From contig CAZECW010000150.1 in the NCBI GenBank assembly GCA_964510585.1, forward strand, positions 4,239 to 36,238: 32,000 bases of DNA, given 5' to 3'. Below are positions 7,791 to 31,312 of the stretch, one piece after another. The number at the start of each line of letters is the position of its first letter. Position 1 is the first letter of the stretch. A program made the translations under genes and the position numbers. Under the pieces are notes generated by a model. The model saw only the letters and a program-made list of their open reading frames with translations, was not told the origin of the DNA and did not search any database. The stretch is from an uncultured archaeon. Its GTDB lineage: Archaea > Asgardarchaeota > Jordiarchaeia > Jordiarchaeales > Jordiarchaeaceae.

Positions 7791-8907
7791 TTTATTATCT
7801 ATAAAGATAACAATTCAAGCCAACTGTTGACAAGACCAGCAATGCTTGTAATCTTTGTGCGAAAACAAATATGTAAGAAATATCATGTATTTGGGGCATC
7901 AAGAGAAAATTCGCAGTCATCAAGGCGGCACCGAAGTATGTCCAATTTAACATCTTAGACTGCAAACCTTACTAGGTTCCCATCAAGTAAGAAGAACCTA
8001 ATTCTTCTATATTCCCAACAGAATCTGCGGGATCTACATGTTTTTCTTCGACTATTGAAATTCTCAAGAGTCACTACTATAAGCCCAGATCCTCATTTCT
8101 CCCTATCCGTTATGATTGGAATCAGAAACCCACACTAGAATGGTATAACCTTAAATAAGCTAAGTAAAAATTTAATGGATGGTGTGGAATTAGTTTTTTA
8201 GTTGCGCATATTGAGTAGTGTGATGAGAGAAATAGTGATGGAATGAAGAGGAGGGTAAGGAGAAACCGATGAGTAAGAGGCGAAAGTGATTTTTGAACTG
8301 ACCTGAGCTCCTAAGTAAACCCTGAACCAAACTCTAACTATTTGGGGAGTTGATGAGATCTATATCTAAAGTCGCCTTAGAAACTGCATCTTCTCCCAGA
8401 GGTGAAATATATAATAAAACCAGAATGGTTTCTGTAAGCACTGAGTATACTATATATTACTTTTTGGTGTTTATACTTTTGCTTTTTGATGTTGCTTTTG
8501 AAAGGGAACACCAGTTCAAATTGTTTTTCGGAGGTTGGAAAATAGGGGCTCTCCAAATGATGCGGAGCGCCAAAAAACACTCTTGGGAGGGCAAAGGGCT
8601 CAACATTCAATTTTCAGGATAATGAGAAAATTGCTACATAGGATAGTAGACTTGATTTTCGTGAGCTAAATGCAGACGTTTTTCCATTTCTAAAAAAATG
8701 TACATTATTTTTTTTAAAAATTAAACATTTTTGCAACATAGTTCTTAGAAAGGGAAAAGGTATATAATACTATAATTGAATATATTTAGTGTGCATTAAA
8801 TCTGAAATGGGAAGCGCAAACATCGCTGAAAGAACATTTTGTAAAAAAAGAGCTACATACTGAAGACCTTTTCATCAATATCGAAATGATGCGAGGTGTA
8901 TGGAACA

Positions 8908-9378
8908 ATGTCTTCGAGGTTGGATCCCTTTATTGATGCTCTTATTTTCTGCACCGTTGTAGGCTCTTTGGATAAGATGGGACTAAACCCAATGTTGTTA
9001 GCTCGTCAGGCTGGCAGAGAAATGGAATCCACAATAGGTGCTTCGATTAAACGGCTTTTAGGTGTAAACCCCCCATCAACATTGGAAGAGCACTGCAAGA
9101 TATCTGAAGCGTTTTTTAAACCCGCCCAGACAGCAGACCCTGATAAGACCAAAGTCTCGTGCTCGGGTAATGTTATCATCATGGAGATAGTTGACTGCGC
9201 ATACCTAACCCAAGCTGAGTTGGGAAGAAGCTTAGGATACAACGCCTGCCCACTATGCATTCAAGCCTTCTGCGAATCTGCCTTAACCAAAGCTGTAAAT
9301 ATAGCTGAGATTGAAAGTTTCCAGGTGGAACGCAATAAGGACACTTGCACCGTTAAAATAAAACTGTTAGAAAAATAA
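8908..9378 (+). CDS. Cys-rich V4R/H-NOX-like small ligand-binding protein (paralog 1)
   Basis: IMEIVDCAY...GYNACPLC...DTCTVKI pattern; GAGGTG RBS at 8893-8898 favours ATG 8908. Confidence 0.55.
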   Translation: MSSRLDPFIDALIFCTVVGSLDKMGLNPMLLARQAGREMESTIGASIKRLLGVNPPSTLEEHCKISEAFFKPAQTADPDKTKVSCSGNVIIMEIVDCAYLTQAELGRSLGYNACPLCIQAFCESALTKAVNIAEIESFQVERNKDTCTVKIKLLEK

Positions 9379-9402
9379 AATAGTTGCGAGGTGTACAACA
9401 TA

Positions 9403-9861
9403 ATGCGCGAAGTAGATCCAAGCTACAACGCCCTAATTTTATCCACCCTATTCCGTGCTTTAGACAGGGTTGGTATGAATCCCATGTTAATAGCCCGCAA
9501 TGCTTCCGAGTTGTTATCTAAACTGTTTGAAGGCCCAGCCAAACAGATTTTTTGTGGAAGGCTGCCATCAACTGTGGAAGAGCTCTTAACTCAAATTGAA
9601 AAGCTAGGAATCAGCAGAGCACAAGAAAAGTCTGAACATTCTTTCTCCAACGGCGTTATAACAATGAAGACTGTTGATTGCATATACCTACCCCTAAATG
9701 CCGTGGGAAAGAACATGGGATACAGGGGTTGTCCAATGTGTGTCCAAACTCTCCTACTAGCTGGTTCACTTAAAGCCCTAAATCTGGGTGAGGCTAAAGA
9801 CATTCGCCTAGAAAACAACGAAAACACTTGCGTCCTAAAACTAGAAATGACAGAAAAATAA
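9403..9861 (+). CDS. Cys-rich V4R/H-NOX-like small ligand-binding protein (paralog 2)
   Basis: TMKTVDCIY...GYRGCPMC...NTCVLKL; clear paralog of the upstream gene; GAGGTG RBS favours ATG 9403. Confidence 0.55.
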   Translation: MREVDPSYNALILSTLFRALDRVGMNPMLIARNASELLSKLFEGPAKQIFCGRLPSTVEELLTQIEKLGISRAQEKSEHSFSNGVITMKTVDCIYLPLNAVGKNMGYRGCPMCVQTLLLAGSLKALNLGEAKDIRLENNENTCVLKLEMTEK

Positions 9862-11397: not shown

Positions 11398-12231
11398 ATG
11401 ACGGTATGTGGAGTATTCTTAGGGATTATTATGGGAGATGGTAGAAGTTCTGGAGCGGGATTGGTGCTCTGTTTAACCATTTTGGGATTTGCAGTGTGTT
11501 TACTTTTTGCCCTCTGGCCGCTGGCATTTATCATACTCTTTTTGGGACTGGTTACCTTCTGCGCCTTGGAATCTAGTAGAAAAGGAACAGTGCCAAGAAC
11601 ACCACAGGATACAAGGCCGAGGAGGTACGAAGTAAGAACTCCACCCACCCCCACCACTGAGGAATATCGCCGCCCCTATTTTAGGGAAACTCCCGAAAAA
11701 CCACAAGTAAAAGTTCCAGTGAAGTATGATGAAGAAGTAACCGCATATGACAGGGCGATTGAAAGAGCCCCGGAGGCAGAGACCGTTGACCTTAGTAGAA
11801 AAGGGGTATATCGTTGGGGGGAGCTGGAAAAAGCCGAGACTTCGACTTTAAGTGAGACTGCTCTGAGGGGAGAGCCTCCTTATGGGGGAGCCGAGGAAGA
11901 AAGCGATTTGTATGGATTAAAAGAAAAATTGGAAAGCACCAAAGCCAAATATAGGTCAATGAGCTACGGAACCGAAGCGGCAGAAAAAGCTAAAAAAGAA
12001 GTCAAAATGCCATCCGTTCCAGAGAAGACACAGGAACAAGAAGATTTAGAGAGTCAAGAGGAGGCAAACCGAATCCTACTGGAAGAATTGAAAAAACGTT
12101 GGATGTCTGGAAAAATAGATGTTGCTATGTACAATAAACTCAAAGAGAAGTACGAAAAGAAAATCGCAGAAATAGAAAAACAGAAGAAAAAAATAGCAAA
12201 AAACAGCTCAACACAAGCCAGCACAAAGTAA
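11398..12231 (+). CDS. Membrane protein with low-complexity linker and C-terminal SHOCT-like/coiled-coil domain
   Basis: Two N-terminal hydrophobic helices; LEELKKRWMSGKIDVAMYNKLKEKY C-terminal motif. Confidence 0.6.
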   Translation: MTVCGVFLGIIMGDGRSSGAGLVLCLTILGFAVCLLFALWPLAFIILFLGLVTFCALESSRKGTVPRTPQDTRPRRYEVRTPPTPTTEEYRRPYFRETPEKPQVKVPVKYDEEVTAYDRAIERAPEAETVDLSRKGVYRWGELEKAETSTLSETALRGEPPYGGAEEESDLYGLKEKLESTKAKYRSMSYGTEAAEKAKKEVKMPSVPEKTQEQEDLESQEEANRILLEELKKRWMSGKIDVAMYNKLKEKYEKKIAEIEKQKKKIAKNSSTQASTK

Positions 12232-15598: not shown

Positions 15599-15816
15599 TA
15601 AACATTACCCTTATCTAAAATGAACTAGGAATGGGAAAAATGTCAATTTTTTCCCGCATTTCCTCGCAACAAATTCCTAATTTTTTTCAGAATCGTTGCC
15701 ATGAAAATATATTTCCATATTTATATCCGAAACGCTTCTAACATATGGGGGTTGTGGAAAAAGCCCCCCCAACTTAAAGTCGTAGAGAGTGCTAATAACC
15801 AACAAAACCAGAATTT

Positions 15817-17013
15817 TTAGTCTCCTCGAAGTCCTTTACGCAACTCTTTTTCTAGCTCTGGAACTATTTTGAATAGATCTCCAACCACACCATAGTTTGC
15901 TATTTTCAGAATGGGAGCATCAGGATCCTTATTAATGGCTACTATTATGTCTGAAGTTTGCATACCTACAAGATGCTGAATCATACCCGAAATTCCGACC
16001 GCAATGTAGAGTTTGGGAGCAACTGTCTTGCCGGTCTGGCCTACCTGATGCATATGGGGCAGCCAATTTTCATCTACTACCGGTCTTGAACAGCCCAAAG
16101 CGGCGTTGAGAGTCTTAGCTAGAGCTTCAACCACTGGTATGTTTTCTGGTTTTCCAATTCCGCGTCCGCAGGAAACTATAATGTCTGCTTCCTCTAGATT
16201 AACACCCTCCGAAACTTCCCTAACCACATTGACAACCTTAGCCCTAATGATTCTGGGGTTGATATTCGCTTCAACCCTAATAACTTCACCTTTTCTACTG
16301 GGGTCGGGTGGCGCTCTTTTCATAACGTTGGGTCGAACAGTAGCCATCTGGGGCCGCGTGTATCTTGAAAGAATTTGAGCCATAATATTGCCACCGAATG
16401 CAGGTCGAGTCTGTAAAAGCAAACCATCGTCAGTTATGTCTAAGCCTGTACAGTCTGCGGTTAAGCCGACCCTTAGTCTGGCTGCTACTCTGGGTGCTAG
16501 GTCGCGACCGTTAAGTGTGGCTCCATAAAGCACTATGGAAGGCTTATACTGGGATATTACTGCAGTGAGCAAAGTGGTGTAAGCGTCGCTATTGTATCTT
16601 TCGAGAAGTTCATTTTCAATTAAGTAAACTTTGTCTGCACCATGAGCGATAAGAGTGTCTGATAGGTTGGACACATTTTTTCCTATCAGAACTGCTGCGA
16701 GTTCCTGTCCCAGCTTGTCTGCTAGTTTTCTTCCTTCACTCAGGAGTTCCAGTGCCACGTTTTTTATTTTTCCTTCACTTTGCTCGGCATATACCCATAC
16801 TCCTTTATATTCCGCTAGGTTTATTTCTGCGCGTTTAGGTCTTTCAATAATTATGGCTTGGGCGGGGCAGGACTTTTCGCAGGCACCGCAAAGATTACAG
16901 GCTGCTGTTATTTGAGCTTTTTCGTTAACTACTTCAGCTGCGCCGAAGGGGCATATTGAGACGCAAACTTTACATCCAGTGCACTTATCTACTATAACTC
17001 GAATCATTTTCAC
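15817..17013 (-). CDS. etfA: Electron transfer flavoprotein alpha subunit with N-terminal 2x[4Fe-4S] ferredoxin domain
   Basis: CTGCKVCVSICP / CNLCGACEKSCP, then GLTADCT, TRPAFGG, QVGQTGKTV, GISGMIQH, AINKD. Confidence 0.92.
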   Translation of the reverse strand: MKMIRVIVDKCTGCKVCVSICPFGAAEVVNEKAQITAACNLCGACEKSCPAQAIIIERPKRAEINLAEYKGVWVYAEQSEGKIKNVALELLSEGRKLADKLGQELAAVLIGKNVSNLSDTLIAHGADKVYLIENELLERYNSDAYTTLLTAVISQYKPSIVLYGATLNGRDLAPRVAARLRVGLTADCTGLDITDDGLLLQTRPAFGGNIMAQILSRYTRPQMATVRPNVMKRAPPDPSRKGEVIRVEANINPRIIRAKVVNVVREVSEGVNLEEADIIVSCGRGIGKPENIPVVEALAKTLNAALGCSRPVVDENWLPHMHQVGQTGKTVAPKLYIAVGISGMIQHLVGMQTSDIIVAINKDPDAPILKIANYGVVGDLFKIVPELEKELRKGLRGD

Positions 17014-18728: not shown

Positions 18729-19964
18729 TTATGTAACCTCTGGTTTTGTTTCATGTTCACAATATTCGTCTCCTTTGGCAACACATTTTACTTCCTGTGT
18801 TGAGCACTTCCTTCCAGTTAGTATTTCGTAGAGTCCGGATATTATTCCGCTAAACCAGAATCCTATGGGTTTTCCAAAGTTTTGGAATTGGTTGCATATG
18901 GGGGAGTTTAAATGTTTTGTGCGGAGCATGTTAGTTGTATCATTGAGTTCGCCAATGAATCGGCCGAATCCTCTTAGTGAATTAAATTTAGTGTATATTG
19001 GTATCGCTTCGCTTAGACTTGGTTTGAATTGTCTCATGAAGTCTTCAACCACTACTCTGCTTCTCTTTTTGCCTTGATTGTAGATTATTTTGTACGTTTC
19101 TTCGTAGCCGAATTTTTCTATCATGGTCTTGATAAATTGTGCCATGTATCTGGTTTCACTTATAATCACTCTTGCACCTAAAAGTTCAACCACACCTCTT
19201 TCAGGCATCTTTAGGTGTTGCTTCATTCTGTGAAATTCTTCCATTATTTCTGTGCTTAATTCGATTCCTCTTCTCCCCACATTATAGAGAATGAGGTCGT
19301 CTACATAGTCCAGTGTGGGTGATTTGGAGACTCTGAGAAATCTTTTATAACTATTGTCCACCTCAAATATTTTAAGCTCAACAACATAATCAAAGATGTG
19401 CTTTAATGTGCTTATTATCGTGTCATCTAACATAGACTTGTTAAAAACGAAAAGCGATGTACCAAACTCACTTAGTAGAATCTTACTCTTGTATATCCAA
19501 TTAATAATTTTGTCTACATCCCTCCCTTTTGACAGCATAATGTTGCTCAAATAACACACATTAAAGCTATGCTCATATTTCTTCATGAATCGAATAGTCC
19601 CATGGAGATAAACGTCAAGATGAAGAATATCTCTTGGATCATCGATGATGAACTTTTCTTCGGATTGGAGTTTTTCGTACATGTTGGTGAAGCCGTCAAC
19701 CAGGAAAAACTTTTTTTCCTTCTCAAATTCTTCAAACCTAGAATTAAAAAACTTTAACCATTCCCTAATCCGCATTGGTGGTAAATCGAGGTCCAGAATT
19801 AATCCATAGTCTCCTTTTTTTAATCTAAAATCCATTATCTGCAAGGGCAAAATCTCACCCATAGTTCCGGTTTCAGTTAACAGTAGGACTTGGGCATTCT
19901 TCTCAAAACCGCCTCGTGTCAAAAAATCGAAGGCAGGAATGCCTGTACTTAACAACTCCATCAC
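18729..19964 (-). CDS. KaiC/RAD55-like (degenerate ATPase) domain fused to V4R domain, paralog 2
   Basis: LSTGIPAFDFLTRGGF, HIFDYVVEL, RFLRVSKS; C-terminal GFGRF, NSPIC, EVKCVAKGDEYCEH. Confidence 0.8.
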   Translation of the reverse strand: MMELLSTGIPAFDFLTRGGFEKNAQVLLLTETGTMGEILPLQIMDFRLKKGDYGLILDLDLPPMRIREWLKFFNSRFEEFEKEKKFFLVDGFTNMYEKLQSEEKFIIDDPRDILHLDVYLHGTIRFMKKYEHSFNVCYLSNIMLSKGRDVDKIINWIYKSKILLSEFGTSLFVFNKSMLDDTIISTLKHIFDYVVELKIFEVDNSYKRFLRVSKSPTLDYVDDLILYNVGRRGIELSTEIMEEFHRMKQHLKMPERGVVELLGARVIISETRYMAQFIKTMIEKFGYEETYKIIYNQGKKRSRVVVEDFMRQFKPSLSEAIPIYTKFNSLRGFGRFIGELNDTTNMLRTKHLNSPICNQFQNFGKPIGFWFSGIISGLYEILTGRKCSTQEVKCVAKGDEYCEHETKPEVT

Positions 19965-20017
19965 TATTCACCCAGGAAGCAAGTAAAAACTCGAGCCTAC
20001 ATTTTCACCTATAGCTT

Positions 20018-21280
20018 TCATACCCGTGAATGTTTTACGATAAATTCGCAATAATCATCCCCCTTTGCTACACATTTTATCTCTTCACACACGTAATGAT
20101 CTCCAGTAAAGATTTCGAAGGCCCCCGCTATTAGTCCCGCCCTGAGCCAACCAGTAGCCTTACCAAGACCTTTGAAATGTGAACAGAAAGGAGAATTTGC
20201 AACTCTAAACCTGTAACTATTTGTTTTTTCGTCAAATGTGAAGTCTGTGGCCCCCTGTCCCCAGAGCTCTGTTAGTTTAGCCAATGATTCAGCCGCCTTT
20301 TTAAGATCAGTTATTTTGAACTGCTCCCTGAAATCTTTAACTAATGGAAAGCCAACTTTTCCCTGATGGTACATAAACTTACTGGCCTCCTCGTATCCGA
20401 ACTCTTCTATCATCATTTCAAAAACCATAGGATAAAATTTTGGGTCCTGAATAATCACTCTCGATTCTAGAAATTCGAGGACGCCTTCTTCTAGCATTTT
20501 CAATTGTTGACTTATATAATCGAAATCCTCAACGGTTTTAGTACTCAGAGCAAATCCTGTGGGTCTTATCTCGTATGGAACAAAATCATCTCGATAAGTA
20601 GGAGATGGTGATTTAACCACCCTCAAATACTTCTGAAACTTTCTGTTCACCTCAAATATTTTAATGTCTAAAACGTAGTCGAACATATGCTCTAGGATTT
20701 TTTGGCTTCTTTCTTCCAGCATACCCTTATCTAAAACAAAGATACACAAGCCGAGCCGGCTAAATCTTGTTATCGCTTGATAAATGAAATTTATGACCTT
20801 GTCCAGTTGCCGTTTCCTAAATAGGAACAAGTTGCTGGAAAACACAAGAATACAAACATTGGGTTTTCGTTGCTCAATTATTTGTGAAAGTTCAGATAAG
20901 TAAGCATTGATGTGGACAATGTCTCTAGGTTTTTCTATTATATGTTCTTCGTTAGAGAGGGGCCCCTCGTACATCCTCGTAAAACCGTCTATCATAAAAA
21001 ACCGTCTATCTTTTTCCAACTCTTCAACGTTGAACTTTTTAAATTTAAACCATTCCCTAATTCTATTTGTGGGAATATCAAAATCTATTATGAAACCCGT
21101 ATCCCCCAGAAATAATCTATTAGCAAACAAGTTAAGAGCCACTATCTCTCCCATGCTTCCCGCTTCGATCAAAAAAAGAACAGAGGAATGCCTGAGAAAT
21201 CCACCGCCACTCAAACCATCTATTTCTAGATTCCCTGAACTAACTAATTCCACAAGGTTCCCCCTTTTGGAAGCTATCAC
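20018..21280 (-). CDS. KaiC/RAD55-like (degenerate ATPase) domain fused to V4R domain, paralog 1
   Basis: VSSGNLEIDGLSGGGF, LEHMFDYVLDI, KYLRVVKS; C-terminal WGQG, NSPFC, AGLIAGAFE, EEIKCVAKGDDYCEF. Confidence 0.8.
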   Translation of the reverse strand: MIASKRGNLVELVSSGNLEIDGLSGGGFLRHSSVLFLIEAGSMGEIVALNLFANRLFLGDTGFIIDFDIPTNRIREWFKFKKFNVEELEKDRRFFMIDGFTRMYEGPLSNEEHIIEKPRDIVHINAYLSELSQIIEQRKPNVCILVFSSNLFLFRKRQLDKVINFIYQAITRFSRLGLCIFVLDKGMLEERSQKILEHMFDYVLDIKIFEVNRKFQKYLRVVKSPSPTYRDDFVPYEIRPTGFALSTKTVEDFDYISQQLKMLEEGVLEFLESRVIIQDPKFYPMVFEMMIEEFGYEEASKFMYHQGKVGFPLVKDFREQFKITDLKKAAESLAKLTELWGQGATDFTFDEKTNSYRFRVANSPFCSHFKGLGKATGWLRAGLIAGAFEIFTGDHYVCEEIKCVAKGDDYCEFIVKHSRV

Positions 21281-22679: not shown

Positions 22680-23031
22680 CCTACTTCACTCTTTAAATTA
22701 AGAAAAAATAAGATCACCTTAAAAAATGTGCTGTACAAAAATATTTGCGTATACTTCTCAGATCAAGAACTGTATGTCTTGGCAACATTTCTCTTTGCTA
22801 TGAAACATATTTTCTTCCTTCACTCGTAGAAACATATGTGGAAGGGTTTGTGTAGAACGATAAAGACCAGAAGGGATGCAGAGGCAAAACTTTATTTATG
22901 AGCGAGAAGCAGATTGAAAACATATTTTTGATTCAAAAACTCTTAACCGTTATATCTTACGAAAAAATTATATCCTCTCTGAAGAATTGTCTCTTGCGAG
23001 TTTATAACACTTTTTAGGAGGTGTTTAAAAA

Positions 23032-24975
23032 ATATCTGAGAAAAGCGATATACGCATAGGTGTCTTTGTCTGCGGCTGAGGCACTAATATATCAGGCGTT
23101 ATCGATGTGAGAGCGTTAAAAGAATACGCTTCTACACTAGCAAACGTTGTTGTGGCTGAGGAGTCAACTTCGCTATGTACAGAAGCAGGCGCAAACCTCA
23201 TCAAAAAGAGCATTAATGAAAATAATTTGAATCGTATAGTAGTGGCGTCCTGCACTCCAATAACCCATGAATCAGTGTTTAAAGCAGTGCTGGAGGATGC
23301 GGGGCTAAATCCTGGATTGCTTGAATTCGTAAACATACGGGAACACGATGCATATGTTCACAGGAATCAACCGGAAGAAGCTCTGGAGAAGGCTAAAGAT
23401 CTAATCAGAGCCGGCGTGGCTCGTGCAAACTTTCTTGAAGAGATCCCCACAAGAGTAATACCCGTGGAGAGAAAATCTCTCGTTATTGGTGGAGGAATTT
23501 CAGGAATTCAAGCAGCTTTGAACCTTGCAAATGATGGTTTTGAAGTCTTTCTAGTTGAAAAGAGCCCTACCATAGGAGGAAAAATGGCTCAACTAGACAG
23601 AATCTTTCCAACGGATGACTGTGCGATATGAATTCTAGGTCCTAAAATGCTTGAAGTAGCAAGAGAACGTAATGTTAAATTATTAACCTACTCAGAAGTG
23701 GAGAAGATAGAAGGGTACTTGGGTAACTTTAAGGTGACAATTAAGAAGAAACCTAGGTACATCATCGCTGAAAAATGCAATGGTTGCGGTGTCTGTGAAG
23801 AGGTATGTCCAGTATTCAGACCAAAAGAGTTTGACGAAAATATGGGAATCAGAAAAGCAATCTACATTCCTTTCCCCCAAGCAGTGCCCAAAATAGCTAT
23901 AATCGATATGGAACACTGTATAAAGTGTCGACTCTGCGAAAAAGTGTGCGAATTTAAAGCAATTGACTTGGACCAAAAGGAAGAAAAAATAGAGTTAAGT
24001 GTAGGTACAATCATAGTCGCAACCGGATATGATCAGTATAATCCAGAAGGAAAATATGGTTATGGCAAGTATGAGAATGTCATTACACAGCTTCAACTGG
24101 AGCGATTACTTGCACCTAATGGACCAACCGGCGGCCACTTGGTGAAATTATCTGATTTGAAGAAACCTGAGAGTATTGTTATGATTCAATGTGTTGGCTC
24201 TAGAGATTTGAATTCCAATCAGTACTGCTCTGACGTATGCTGTATGGTGGCCATAAAGAATGCAAAGCTAATAAAGCAGGAATATCCAGACGTAGAGGTA
24301 ACAATCTGTTACATGGATATAAGGTGCGCAGGGAAGGCTTGGGAAGAATACTATACCAGAGCGAGAGAATATAACATAAAATTCATTAGGGGAAATGTCG
24401 GCTCAGTTAGAGAGAATCCCGAGACAAAGAAATTGATCGTTAGAGTTGAAGATACTCTGAACAGTGAGATAAAAAGGATAGAGGCTGATTTAGTGGTTCT
24501 TTCAGTTGCAATGGTTCCTTCCAAAGACTCCGAAAGGCTAGCAAGCATCCTGCGCCTAGATAGAAGTCCAGGAGGTTTCTATAAAGAGAGACACTCGGTG
24601 CTTAGTCCAATAGATACTAAGGTTCCAGGAATATACGTTGCAGGCGCGGCTCATGGACCCAAATCTGTACCAGAAGCTGTGGCTCATGCCAGTGGTGCAG
24701 CTGCTGCAGCAGCGATACCCCTAATTAAAGGTAGGTACACGATAGAACTCGTATCCGCTACAGTTGATAAAGATCGGTGTAATCTGTGTGAATTGTGCGT
24801 AAATGTATGTCCGATTGGTGCAATTACGGTCAAGGATGGTGCTATTGAGATTAATGAGATAATCTGTAAAGGTTGTGGTTCTTGCGCTTCGATGTGTCCT
24901 TCTAGAGCTATGACTGTGAGGTTTTACAGGCCAAAACAGTTTGAAACGTACATTGATGCTCTGTTTACAACTTAG
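23032..24975 (+). CDS. hdrA: Heterodisulfide reductase subunit A-like selenoprotein (Sec at codons 16 and 200), ~647 aa
   Basis: One continuous frame apart from TGA 23077-23079 (RIGVFVCG-U-GTNISG) and TGA 23629-23631 (TDDCAI-U-ILGPKM), both at conserved Cys positions; FAD motif, QCVGSR, ferredoxin domains; ATA start inferred. Confidence 0.9.
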
Positions 24976-24989
24976 TCGGGGTGTTCTTT

Positions 24990-25421
24990 ATGAGTTTAAA
25001 TTTTGAAGTTTTCACTCCCAAAATTGCTGCGTTCTTATGCTTGAAGTGAGGTTACGGTGCAGCTGATATGGCTGGAACAATCAGAAGCCAATACCCAACA
25101 TCAATAAGAGCGGTTAAGGTTAGGTGTTTAGGCATTGTGCATCCTGACTACATACTAAGGGCTTTATGCAAAGGAGCAGATGGGGTACTTTTAATAGGGT
25201 GACGAATAGGAGAATGCGACTATGAAACAGGGAACATATCTGCAACTAAACATGTGGGATACTTAAAACAGGTATTGCGTGCTATAGGATTAAGTGAAGA
25301 ACGTTTGCAAATTTACTACTGTTCCTCAGCAGAGGGATCATTATTCGCTGAAATAATCAAAAAGGTAACAGAAGTGATCGCGAAACTAGGACCCAATCCA
25401 ATTAGGCAAACTAAAAGCTAA
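24990..25421 (+). CDS. mvhD: MvhD/VhuD [2Fe-2S] subunit, selenoprotein (Sec at codons 20 and 71), 143 aa; absent from ORF track
   Basis: MSLNFEVFTPKIAAFLCLK-U-GYGAADMAG...VRCLG...GADGVLLIG-U-RIGECDYETGN...CSSAEG...LGPNP; TGA at 25047 and 25200, TAA 25419-25421. Confidence 0.93.
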
Positions 25422-25466
25422 GTAGTGTGAGCCTCGTAGGTAAACCTTTGACTATGAGGGGACTAC
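25422..25466 (+). promoter_or_regulatory. Putative SECIS element (eukaryote/Asgard-type kink-turn hairpin) in the mvhD 3' UTR
   Basis: GUAG/CUAC stem, UGU bulge, tandem GA/GA (GUGA...GGAC), CCUCGUAG/CUAUGAGG helix, AAA in apical loop. Confidence 0.75.
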
Positions 25467-25507
25467 CCCCTTAAGGCGAGGGGAAGCTATGACTAATCTA
25501 CTCTCAA

Positions 25508-26623
25508 ATGAAAGTTAATGGAACGGGAATTTCGGAATTGAAGACAGGTGACTATGTAATAGCGAGCAGTAAGGACGAAAGATTATCTGCAACATATGGA
25601 GGAGGAGCCATCCAAACTATTCTCAAAAAAATGCTGGAAAATAAATTTGTGGAAAAAGTTGTGCTTTTTCAAGAAAAAAAGGATAGATACAGTCTGGCTC
25701 CAGTAGTAATAGAAAATCCAGACCAACTAACCTCTATACCTCTTTCTCAATTCAGTGCGTACTACCTTTCTGGACTTAATAGTGTGCCCAAATATATCCA
25801 GCAGAATTTAAAAAACGCTGGAAAAATAGGTGTTATAGCAAAGCCATGCGATATTAGAGCTATGGTTGAACTAGAAAAAAGGAAGCAAGCAAATTTAGAT
25901 AACTTGGTAATTTTGGGGGAGGAATGTCACGGCAAGGTTTCACCAAAAAAGGTTCAAAAAATATTAGAGGAAGAACGGGTTGACGCAAGTAAAGTAATTA
26001 GTGAGATGATAGACGGCAATAAGTTTAATATTAGTTTTGAGGGTGGAAACAAAAATTATATTTTGGGGAAGAAGCTTGATTTGGAAGAGAGTTGTAAAAG
26101 GTGTGGGGAGAGGGAACCAAATATTTCAGACATTTCATTTCAAGTTGTTAAGGACAACGATAAAACAAAAACTTTAATACATATAAACTCAGAAAGGGGA
26201 TTAAAAATTATTAAGTTAAGCTCAGAAGAATTGAACTTGGAAAAAGCAAAGGAAGAAGTGTTGGAACACGCTGAGAGAAATATGGCTCTATCAATTTTGA
26301 AGGCAGAAAGGTACAAATTAAAACAATTTAAAAATTTTGATAAATTATCCGAGGTAGAGGCATATAACTATTTCAAGAAATTAATTGAAAATTGTAGGAA
26401 ATGCGGAAACTGCATAAGGGCATGCCCAATCTGTGTCTGCTTAGATTGTACAGTAATTAAGCAGAGGAAGGAAATAGAACCAACTTTATACTTCCTACTT
26501 AGGATGGGACACATGGGCAAAGCATGCGTAAATTGCGGCATCTGCGATTCATCATGTAATTTTCTGGATCTGGGGCCGAGCCTGATATTCCATAGGCTTA
26601 GCGAAATTTCTAAAAAAGGATGA
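25508..26623 (+). CDS. FdhB/FrhB-like F420-interacting beta subunit with C-terminal 2x[4Fe-4S]
   Basis: GGGAIQTILKKML, KPCDIRAMVELEKRKQ, LGEECHG, CKRC, CRKCGNCIRACPICVC, CVNCGICDSSC. Confidence 0.8.
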   Translation: MKVNGTGISELKTGDYVIASSKDERLSATYGGGAIQTILKKMLENKFVEKVVLFQEKKDRYSLAPVVIENPDQLTSIPLSQFSAYYLSGLNSVPKYIQQNLKNAGKIGVIAKPCDIRAMVELEKRKQANLDNLVILGEECHGKVSPKKVQKILEEERVDASKVISEMIDGNKFNISFEGGNKNYILGKKLDLEESCKRCGEREPNISDISFQVVKDNDKTKTLIHINSERGLKIIKLSSEELNLEKAKEEVLEHAERNMALSILKAERYKLKQFKNFDKLSEVEAYNYFKKLIENCRKCGNCIRACPICVCLDCTVIKQRKEIEPTLYFLLRMGHMGKACVNCGICDSSCNFLDLGPSLIFHRLSEISKKG

Positions 26624-27629: not shown

Positions 27630-28286
27630 ATGATTTATGGTGCTGAGAACTCGAAGGAGGAAAATTTAACTAGCGATGGTGAGCAGTTAACAAAAGAAGA
27701 AGGTAAAGATGTCACTAGCTCTATCCCTGAACAACTTGAGTATTTTTTAGGGCAATCTTTGGGGAAAATATTGGAGGAACAGGCAACCAAAATCAAGTTG
27801 ATAGAAATGAAGGTAAAGTCTCCCATGCGTAAACACTTTATAGGAGAAGTAATCAATGGGGTGTGGGTGCCCAAATTCCCTTTAAAGAGCTATAAACGTG
27901 CTGAGTTAATATTTCAACTAAAGAATTTAAAGGAAGCCTACGAGCTTGTAAAAGCCATTAGGGAGGAAAATGAGAGAATCAAAGAGGAACAAAAGTCACT
28001 CGAGGCCTACGATACATTTAAGGGAGGATACCTAATAACTGCAATCGCAGTGCTATTTGATGATCCCTACAAAACATTTCTTTATATCAATTTCAACCCC
28101 AAAAAGAGAGTCTACTTCATAACTTATCTATGCGAAAAATGGCCTACCGAAGGAGTTCCTCTCTTCCACATAGAAATGGAGAAAAGATTTAAAAAAGCCG
28201 GCTACACCAAAATCGAAGACCGCGAAGAAATCCACAAGAGAGTAAAAATGTACTTACCTGATGAAAGTTTCATATATTTCCGCTAG
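27630..28286 (+). CDS. Hypothetical protein
   Basis: 218-aa ORF with GAGGTG RBS; no family recognised. Confidence 0.7.
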   Translation: MIYGAENSKEENLTSDGEQLTKEEGKDVTSSIPEQLEYFLGQSLGKILEEQATKIKLIEMKVKSPMRKHFIGEVINGVWVPKFPLKSYKRAELIFQLKNLKEAYELVKAIREENERIKEEQKSLEAYDTFKGGYLITAIAVLFDDPYKTFLYINFNPKKRVYFITYLCEKWPTEGVPLFHIEMEKRFKKAGYTKIEDREEIHKRVKMYLPDESFIYFR

Positions 28287-30469: not shown

Positions 30470-31312
30470 GTGGTCTCCCAAGTGATGAATTTGTCTAATA
30501 ACGAGAAAACATGGTTCGAAAAGGAGTATAAAGTGGCTTGGAAAATAGCTACTGAGGCGATTAACTTAGAGAAAAGGGAGCAATTCAAAGAAGCGAGTGA
30601 GAATTACAGAAAATCGGCTGAAATACTTTCCAAATTACTAGAAAAACCAATAAAGCAAGAATTAGGAAACTCAATTAGAACCAAAATTTATGAGTATAAG
30701 GAAAGAGCCGAACTATTAGAAAGCATTTATGAAAAACAAAAGGAAGGTATGCAACCCCAGAAAACTGAAACCATGAGTATGGTTTTGCACGGACCAGAAA
30801 TCGGCTTAAAGGCAATCCAAATCTTGAGGGAGGCATCAAGCGAAATAATGATTATGAGCTACCTGCTCTTCGAAGTTAAAACCCTAAGGGCAGAAAATAA
30901 AATCTACCGAATCGACCTTCTCGACACCCTTATCCAAAAATCGAAAAACGGAGTAAATATTAGAATAATCACCTCTCCACCAGACGTTCAAGTATTGGGA
31001 AAAAATGCCTGGAAGCAGGGCAACGCCCTCACAAAGCTATTATCCGAATCTAACATACAAATTAAGCTTTGCAGCTTTGCCCACACCAAATTCATAGTTG
31101 CAGACGGATTAGTGGTCTTTCGAGGCAGCGCCAACCTAACCAGCAGCGGTCTTTCCGGTAAAGGAGACGTGGCCGAGGCAACAAATGACGAGCGCATCAT
31201 AAATTACTACTCCACAATATTCGAAGAACGATGGCGCAACACGAGTAAGAGTTGTCAAGATTGTACCGAAAAATCCTGCCTCAAAGAATATCAGATTTCC
31301 AAGCAACAATAA
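30470..31312 (+). CDS. MIT domain + phospholipase D-like (single HKD) domain protein
   Basis: N-terminal AWKIATEAINLEKREQFKEASENYRKSAEIL...IRTKIYEYKERAELL (MIT pattern); C-terminal HTKFIVAD and GSANLT; terminal CQDCTEKSC. Confidence 0.8.
   Translation: MVSQVMNLSNNEKTWFEKEYKVAWKIATEAINLEKREQFKEASENYRKSAEILSKLLEKPIKQELGNSIRTKIYEYKERAELLESIYEKQKEGMQPQKTETMSMVLHGPEIGLKAIQILREASSEIMIMSYLLFEVKTLRAENKIYRIDLLDTLIQKSKNGVNIRIITSPPDVQVLGKNAWKQGNALTKLLSESNIQIKLCSFAHTKFIVADGLVVFRGSANLTSSGLSGKGDVAEATNDERIINYYSTIFEERWRNTSKSCQDCTEKSCLKEYQISKQQ

Follow-up and report, generated by a model that had tools for sequence, protein, structure and literature searches.

Lokiarchaeota provide one of the closest described counterparts of the element analysed here. 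According to the main text of Mariotti 2016 (PMC4989117), a single element 3' of vhuD, the lokiSECIS, is shared by hdrA and vhuD and serves as many as six UGAs across some 2 kb on a probably polycistronic mRNA; in these archaea the hdrA stop is never UGA, and SBP2 was not detected. The main text of a later survey of more than 400 genomes, Jordarchaeia among them, reports that almost all Asgard hdrA/frhD share one structure (Huang 2024, PMC11227280). HdrA and MvhD selenoproteins and SECIS elements are described from Jordarchaeia in the accessible text of Sun 2021 (PMC9723677), and eukaryote-like SECIS elements from Freyarchaeia in that of Valentin-Alvarado 2024 (PMC11291895). Fusions of vhuD and hdrA are common according to the accessible part of a 2026 review (PMC13188914), from which the terms "three-way" and "junction" are absent, and in the one test of an Asgard SECIS that we found, made in the methanogen M. 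maripaludis, a Loki vhuU SECIS is reported as inactive (accessible text of Peiter 2025, PMC11881835). Signal sharing is already known, then, from Lokiarchaeota since 2016 (PMC4989117) and across Asgard archaea since 2024 (PMC11227280), and we found no experimental test of it in the literature consulted. What the present locus and its relatives add to the printed record is a third arm of the element, fused sister loci under one signal and a paralog with two signals, of which the third arm or the two-signal arrangement may already figure in the supplements to these papers.

Results

The hdrA-mvhD locus and its host

We analysed a stretch of 32,000 nucleotides (hereafter, the window) from a draft genome of 3.78 Mb that is 96% complete. 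We infer that the host is a Jordarchaeia-type Asgard archaeon; the closest named relatives of its HdrA are from Jordarchaeia (88% and 81%). On the + strand, hdrA (23032..24975) encodes a heterodisulfide reductase A-type selenoprotein of 647 aa, with Sec codons at 23077-79 and 23629-31 and a TAG stop at 24973-75, in a frame that is open solely if TGA is read through. NCBIfam HdrA models match it at E 1e-250, below their curated cut-offs, and Cys (CHCG/CCCG) replaces the first UGA in three orthologues of family f2. The gene likely starts at the ATA codon 23032, 8 nt 3' of an SD-like GGAGGTG (23017..23023, +). No ATG, GTG or TTG lies near this ribosome site: the codon found there is ATA (23032-23034) in the window and ATT in 9 relatives, one of which, L043, also has a TTG option. 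A GGAGG-type motif followed closely by ATT or ATA occurs in 10/10 loci of clade A (defined below) whose 5' end is present, and non-standard starts are rare genome-wide (2 ATT and 0 ATA among 45 sampled strong-SD starts).

The spacer between the genes (24976..24989, +) is 14 nt long, contains an SD-like GGGGTG and is too short for a SECIS; with TAG at 24973-75 and ATG at 24990, the sequence-only reading of this DNA was right to see no room there for a separate hdrA signal. The genes are not in frame, and the corresponding spacer measures 11-14 nt in 8/8 unfused clade-A loci. The second gene, mvhD/vhuD (24990..25421, +), encodes a selenoprotein of 143 aa (Pfam PF02662, E 2.6e-41; also NF045873) with Sec codons at 25047-49 and 25200-02 and a TAA stop at 25419-21, and the SECIS core starts 6 nt from this stop. 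The four in-frame UGAs at 23077, 23629, 25047 and 25200 lie 2350, 1798, 380 and 227 nt 5' of the core. In all five family-f2 loci of clade A (L043, L045, L046, L047 and L048) we also observed a 21-22-nt insert in mvhD, just 5' of the first Sec codon and shaped like a bulge-helix-bulge (BHB), with two 3-nt bulges and a central helix of CUGG with CCAG, CCGG or CUGG. It is absent from the window. At 22 nt the insert disrupts the reading frame, and without it the protein reads C-W-K-U-G; it is probably an mRNA intron neighbouring a Sec codon. In these same five loci the mvhD frame enters the SECIS and stops 23-47 nt 3' of the core start.

Downstream of the element lies a FrhB/FdhB-like Fe-S gene (25538..26623, +; Pfam PF04432/PF04422) with a UGA stop and a likely TTG start at 25538, within a longest ORF that begins at ATG 25508. 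A homologue occupies this place in 8/8 unfused clade-A loci and in 0/3 complete fused loci, and the gene is likely the third cistron of the hdrA-mvhD unit. Read-through of its UGA to U-T-C-K was ruled out, since UAG ends 5/7 homologues checked. A search for a TATA-type pattern gave no match, and a sigma-70 promoter scan is uninformative for an archaeal host. Elsewhere in the window we noted two tandem genes for KaiC-like ATPases plus V4R (18729-21280, -) and a MIT domain fused with a PLD-like domain (30470-31312, +), while four ORFs of 156-277 aa (9-695, 8896-9861, 11398-12231 and 27630-28286) matched no Pfam family.

The host encodes SecS (E 1e-153), EFSec (8e-90) and a SelD with an in-frame TGA (1e-67), all passing their cut-offs, together with a likely PSTK (E 6e-61, below the curated cut-off). 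Neither RF01852, nor Rfam on the Sec-machinery region, nor an anticodon-arm script found tRNA-Sec in the host genome, and the Rfam cut-off for it was reached in 0/11 class genomes. ARAGORN found only 5-6 tRNAs, and tRNAs of this lineage are described as heavily intron-split in the accessible text of 10.64898/2026.10.13.758758. A PF01248 search of the draft host genome returned two L7Ae-family matches, in open frames of 123 and 103 aa, and no SBP2-sized L7Ae-domain gene. In the host selD (G000:C193, ~53620-53660; L002), a 30-nt hairpin insert introduces an in-frame TAA; an internal TAA is present in 8/10 selD matches of the class, 7 of them aligned at the same spot, and the insert has a relaxed BHB shape that gave no match in a canonical BHB scan.

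A conserved SECIS core behind mvhD

The fold that the sequence-only reading had proposed directly after the mvhD stop is present piece by piece. Its core arm (25422..25466, +) consists of a 4-bp GUAG/CUAC helix, a UGU bulge, tandem GA/GA, a G.G pair, an 8-bp stem and a 12-nt loop. The 5' side reads GUAG (25422-25), UGU (25426-28), GA (25429-30), G (25431) and CCUCGUAG (25432-39); the apical loop is GUAAACCUUUGA (25440-51), with AAA at 25442-44; and the 3' side reads CUAUGAGG (25452-59), G (25460), GA (25461-62) and CUAC (25463-66), the 8 bp of the upper stem being formed by CCUCGUAG and CUAUGAGG. Structure prediction for 25416-25488 gives pair probabilities of 0.98-0.99 for its three main helices. 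The folding energy is not unusual (z -1.46; 15/200 shuffles equally good), and an Rfam scan of the window returned no SECIS family at E up to 5, its sole match (E 1.9) being irrelevant. A covariance model trained on 11 other elements, with the window's own left out, found the element as the only significant match in the window (31.2 bits, E 1.2e-5). The remaining 10 matches reach at most 10.7 bits, and none lies on the + strand from 22300 to the mvhD stop.

A strict descriptor run over the 3.78-Mb host genome gave 13 matches, 4 of them directly 3' of Sec genes, the window element included. The sequence-only reading had suggested looking for the same fold behind other Sec genes, and we found it in the host behind the hdrA-mvhD paralog on contig C76 (two copies), behind selD and behind a small gene with a T-U-G-G motif. 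The latter (G000:C113:49527-49850, L066) is a small ORF with Y-T-U-G-G and a SECIS at 49866; it has one in-frame TGA in 11/11 class genomes, is accompanied by a three-armed SECIS in 8/11, matches nothing in Pfam or NCBIfam, and may be HesB/IscA-like.

Across 11 elements, 96.6% of the cells of the upper stem are paired and 27 changed on both sides, a result equalled by 0/500 shuffles, on rows whose choice by descriptor and 12-nt loop leans favourable. Cross-class MAFFT alignments were out of register, so core-anchored scripts were used: in these, stem positions 3-5 are paired in 33/33 Jordarchaeia elements and most positions show three to five pair types; position 1 is paired in only 18/33, in keeping with the non-canonical base that a kink-turn would have there. 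The six closest loci show no significant covariation (29-73 of 500 shuffles) and an invariant GUAG/CUAC helix (6/6), and the close relative L038 has UA instead of GA in its 3' core. Run on Loki-type and other loci, whether or not of Sec type, model R1 detected selD alone (E 0.23) and no SECIS of hdrA/mvhD. On these comparative grounds, the fold behind hdrA-mvhD is a real and conserved Asgard type I, eukaryote-like SECIS, and we infer that its GUGA/GA core folds as a kink-turn.

One conserved element behind two genes in clade A

All TGA-containing mvhD matches (21/21) were fetched from 10 other genomes of the class. The midpoint-rooted HdrA tree holds a clade A of 12 rows, the window included (100/99), and a clade B of 11 rows (100/100); L060, whose contig ends inside mvhD, was used in the tree only, and L007/L008 were left out of the tallies. 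So was G000:C179:280-1160 (L067), the decayed remains of an hdrA-mvhD pair, which has suffered a large deletion and keeps a degenerate SECIS (24 bits); a pseudogene or contaminant, it resembles the fused type by eye.

A relaxed scan spanned 400 nt 5' of hdrA to 3' of mvhD in 11 clade-A loci, with the 5' flank missing in L039 and only 95 nt long in L048. The element is present in 11/11, between +2361 and +2396 relative to the hdrA start. The 12 other matches are weak, and one of them is an alternative register of the element itself. Four weak matches, from three loci, fall near the ribosome site with differing geometry, and the window has two weak candidates, one overlapping the hdrA start and one 1756 nt inside the gene, each with UA rather than GA as 3' core. 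A separate SECIS in the hdrA 5' UTR or coding sequence would, by the sequence-only reading's own terms, have contradicted it; no second positionally conserved element appeared in the hdrA 5' region or in either coding sequence of the 11 loci, and the hdrA leaders show no common fold by eye. The covariance model recovers the element in 9/10 other clade-A loci (three of which belong to its training set), misses it in L046 and gives it 10.4 bits in L045. With such limited sensitivity to true elements, the model may also have passed over a second signal.

In three loci (L040, L041 and L042, from G006, G009 and G010), hdrA and mvhD are joined in one frame that keeps all four UGAs and ends at the UGA of the SECIS core, the only such element there. 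The fused subclade is sister to the window's subclade (100/99), and a fourth, truncated fused copy (L060) occurs in G007, a genome that also has an unfused pair. Since the fused loci share the four UGAs and the single element, one signal about 2.3 kb away appears sufficient. The midpoint-rooted tree places the unfused state at the base of clade A, which makes the fusion likely derived. The hdrA stop is UAA or UAG in 8/8 unfused clade-A, 11/11 clade-B and 17/17 other loci, all of which are kin and not independent; UGA ends 20.8% of 1849 long frames of the host genome versus 0/36 unfused Sec-type hdrA loci.

Paralogs with two signals

The C76 paralog of the host (L058) is a Sec-hdrA/Sec-mvhD pair with one SECIS per gene, at G000:C76:15266-15301 and 15795-15832. 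In clade B, to which it belongs, the hdrA-mvhD gap is at least 120 nt and hdrA has a dedicated SECIS in 11/11 loci (a core variant in L056), in addition to the one 3' of mvhD. Signal sharing is therefore not universal, since clade B keeps a SECIS of hdrA's own throughout.

Outside the class we fetched 18/18 mvhD matches with an in-frame TGA and dropped the Cys-type L092. An element follows mvhD in 17/17 of the remaining Sec-type pairs, which come from three other Asgard families and have 15 short hdrA-mvhD gaps and two of about 146 nt. Visual inspection of the two longer gaps (L090 and L091, from G018 and G028) shows a SECIS-like fold that the descriptors missed, with AGGA/AA as its core and a third arm; two-signal pairs may occur outside Jordarchaeia too.

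A third arm and a predicted closing helix

The sequence-only reading placed the core correctly (25422-25466), though not the boundaries of the element, which likely extends over 25416-25488. The revised extent takes in the small hairpin that the reading had correctly reported at 25467-25483 (+) and treated as a bystander. CCCCU (25467-71) pairs there with AGGGG (25479-83) around the loop UAAGGCG, which ends in a conserved GC(G/A). A closing helix, P0, may form between AGCU at 25416..25419 (+) and AGCU at 25485-88, in a predicted three-way junction (pair probabilities 0.64-0.88).

An arm with a stem of at least 5 bp lies 0-6 nt 3' of the core GA in 33/33 Jordarchaeia hdrA/mvhD elements, and its loop ends in GC(G/A) across the 33, with GUG once. 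The rule combining these traits was formulated after inspection of the same sequences; it also holds for 30/988 loose genome-wide core matches, true elements among them, and for 403/20000 random windows (2.0%). The six closest loci contribute one compensatory pair. As a possible further contact we considered kissing between the two loops (CCUU with AAGG in the window), which by eye is not conserved and was dropped. A role of the arm in hiding the ribosome site of the next gene was dismissed because the conserved downstream start is likely TTG 25538; the ATG at 25489, which L039 lacks, begins a frame of only 9 codons.

Comparison with described elements

Like the lokiSECIS as presented in the main text of PMC4989117, the element sits right behind vhuD, with none between the genes and a multi-Sec HdrA upstream. 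Both have a RUGA/GA core, a 9-position stem, an A-rich loop start, a reach of about 2 kb and a non-UGA hdrA stop, and in both the core UGA may double as a stop codon, which in our set happens in the fused sister loci. They differ in that the window core is GUGA whereas that of the lokiSECIS is always AUGA, as it is in the 10 other clade-A loci, and in the loop, which in the window has 12 nt, a G at position 11 and a GA end, against 11 nt ending in G, mostly AG. By sequence, the window element thus falls outside the strict lokiSECIS definition and would work like a lokiSECIS, and we file it under the broader Asgard type. The third arm and closing helix are not found in the accessible text of that paper, whose supplement may show them, and the clade-B paralog, with its separate hdrA SECIS, departs from the "all occurrences" given there.

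For the Asgard type I, eSECIS-like, the main text of PMC11227280 gives a GA_[G/A]A core, a stem of 7-15 bp with up to 2 mismatches, a loop of 8-20 nt without ministem and adenines early in the loop. The window has GUGA (25427-30, itself a listed core) and GA (25461-62), 8 bp plus G.G, a 12-nt loop and GUAAA, which is the listed variant G[U/G]AAA; its location, directly 3' of a selenoprotein gene and shared by hdrA/frhD, also agrees. These traits agree with the eukaryote-like assignment made in the sequence-only reading. The accessible text of PMC11227280 contains no third arm, and its main text neither "fused" nor "fusion"; a third arm or pairs with two signals may appear in its Tables S4-S6 or Fig. 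S11.

Eukaryotic type I SECIS elements share with the window element a RUGA/GA kink-turn core, unpaired apical adenines, a location 3' of the coding sequence and action at a distance. They differ in the upper helix, which is about 11-12 bp long in eukaryotes and 8 bp here, and in lacking the extra arm and the predicted polycistronic mRNA; the absence of an Rfam SECIS match and of a detected SBP2-sized L7Ae-domain gene in the draft genome also set the window apart. The motif of the methanococcal eaSECIS (a GAA/A bulge followed by three G-C pairs) is absent from 25416-25488 by inspection. The sequence has the features of a standard kink-turn, namely the canonical GUAG/CUAC helix, a 3-nt UGU bulge and tandem G.A/A.G. 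In the window, 4 bp of canonical helix part the core from the junction, unlike in the k-junction of Li 2023 (PMC10573300, accessible text, where SECIS is not mentioned), whose third helix sits opposite the bulge on the non-bulged strand, so the element would be a standard k-turn plus a distal junction. Several relatives, with only 0-2 nt between core and third arm, have a spacing compatible with a k-junction. A literature search combining SECIS and three-way junction gave nothing on Asgard elements by title or the start of the abstract.

Discussion

We consider it highly probable that the element, on a predicted polycistronic mRNA with hdrA and mvhD, forms a kink-turn through its GUGA/GA core, binds an L7Ae-family protein or another factor, and delivers EFSec-Sec-tRNA by looping to all four upstream UGAs. 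The bound factor would present EFSec-GTP-Sec-tRNA to ribosomes paused at UGA, and looping of the mRNA would bring it to any sufficiently distant upstream UGA of the same RNA, whichever cistron is being translated. The claim that one element serves both genes, with a reach of about 2.3 kb, is supported computationally by its presence in all 11 clade-A loci, by the fused sisters and by the lack of a second conserved signal.

It is improbable that the element serves mvhD only and that hdrA relies on a cryptic, differently shaped signal in its leader or coding sequence, or on one acting in trans. Clade-B hdrA does have its own SECIS, and descriptors depend on shape, as the AGGA-core fold that escaped them in the L090/L091 gap illustrates; the window also holds two weak candidates. 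Yet no candidate occurs at a homologous position in the 11 loci, the leaders share no visible fold, and the fused sisters have the same single element. It seems scarcely credible that splicing or frameshifting joins hdrA and mvhD in one frame, so that no cistron boundary is crossed. This idea draws on the BHB-type inserts in coding genes of the lineage and on a 56-nt BHB-shaped candidate across the hdrA stop in the window and L039, whose removal would be in frame by a manual reading. But the central helix of this candidate is UUUU/GGGG, all wobble, the other 6 of 8 loci lack the candidate altogether, and splicing across the hdrA stop was rejected. Loose BHB candidates are moreover common (3 in the window alone), removal would cut a C-terminal segment of HdrA that the fused relatives keep, and in 8/8 unfused clade-A loci mvhD comes with an SD-like motif and a start codon of its own.

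As for the small hairpin, its conservation in sequence identifies it as a third arm of the SECIS element, likely folded with the core as one unit through the three-way junction and acting as a docking or stabilising part. That it is instead a separate 3'-end stabiliser, a processing site or a control element for the next gene strikes us as unlikely, even if any mRNA end could gain protection from a 3' hairpin and P0 is weak in clade A (66.7% of cells paired; score of at least 4 in 7/11 loci). The arm adjoins the core in all 33 Jordarchaeia elements regardless of the downstream gene, and it is also found on the clade-B element between hdrA and mvhD. In other Asgard families a motif-free score of at least 4 is reached by 16/17 elements (background 39%), and one of at least 5 by 12/17 (background 16%). 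A closing helix scores at least 4 in 45/50 own pairs versus 547/1848 cross-class pairings, and a scan of bacterial type found no U-run 3' of the hairpin. Going further, we see roughly even chances that the Asgard SECIS is a three-armed RNA of which published models show the upper arm only, with the third arm and its GC(G/A) loop as a required docking site for an archaeal SECIS-binding factor or EFSec.

A shared long-range signal has been proposed, in print since 2016, as a step from archaeal to eukaryotic Sec coding. The value of our data in this regard is incremental: the fused sister genes offer natural support for a reach of 2.35 kb, and the two-signal paralog serves as an internal control. 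With the third arm, the element acquires new boundaries, which matters for cloning Asgard SECIS elements in reporters or for seeking their binding protein. Within Jordarchaeia, a single scaffold comes in three natural versions (two genes with a signal each, two genes with one signal, and a fused gene with one signal), through which cross-cistron recoding over 2.35 kb becomes directly testable.
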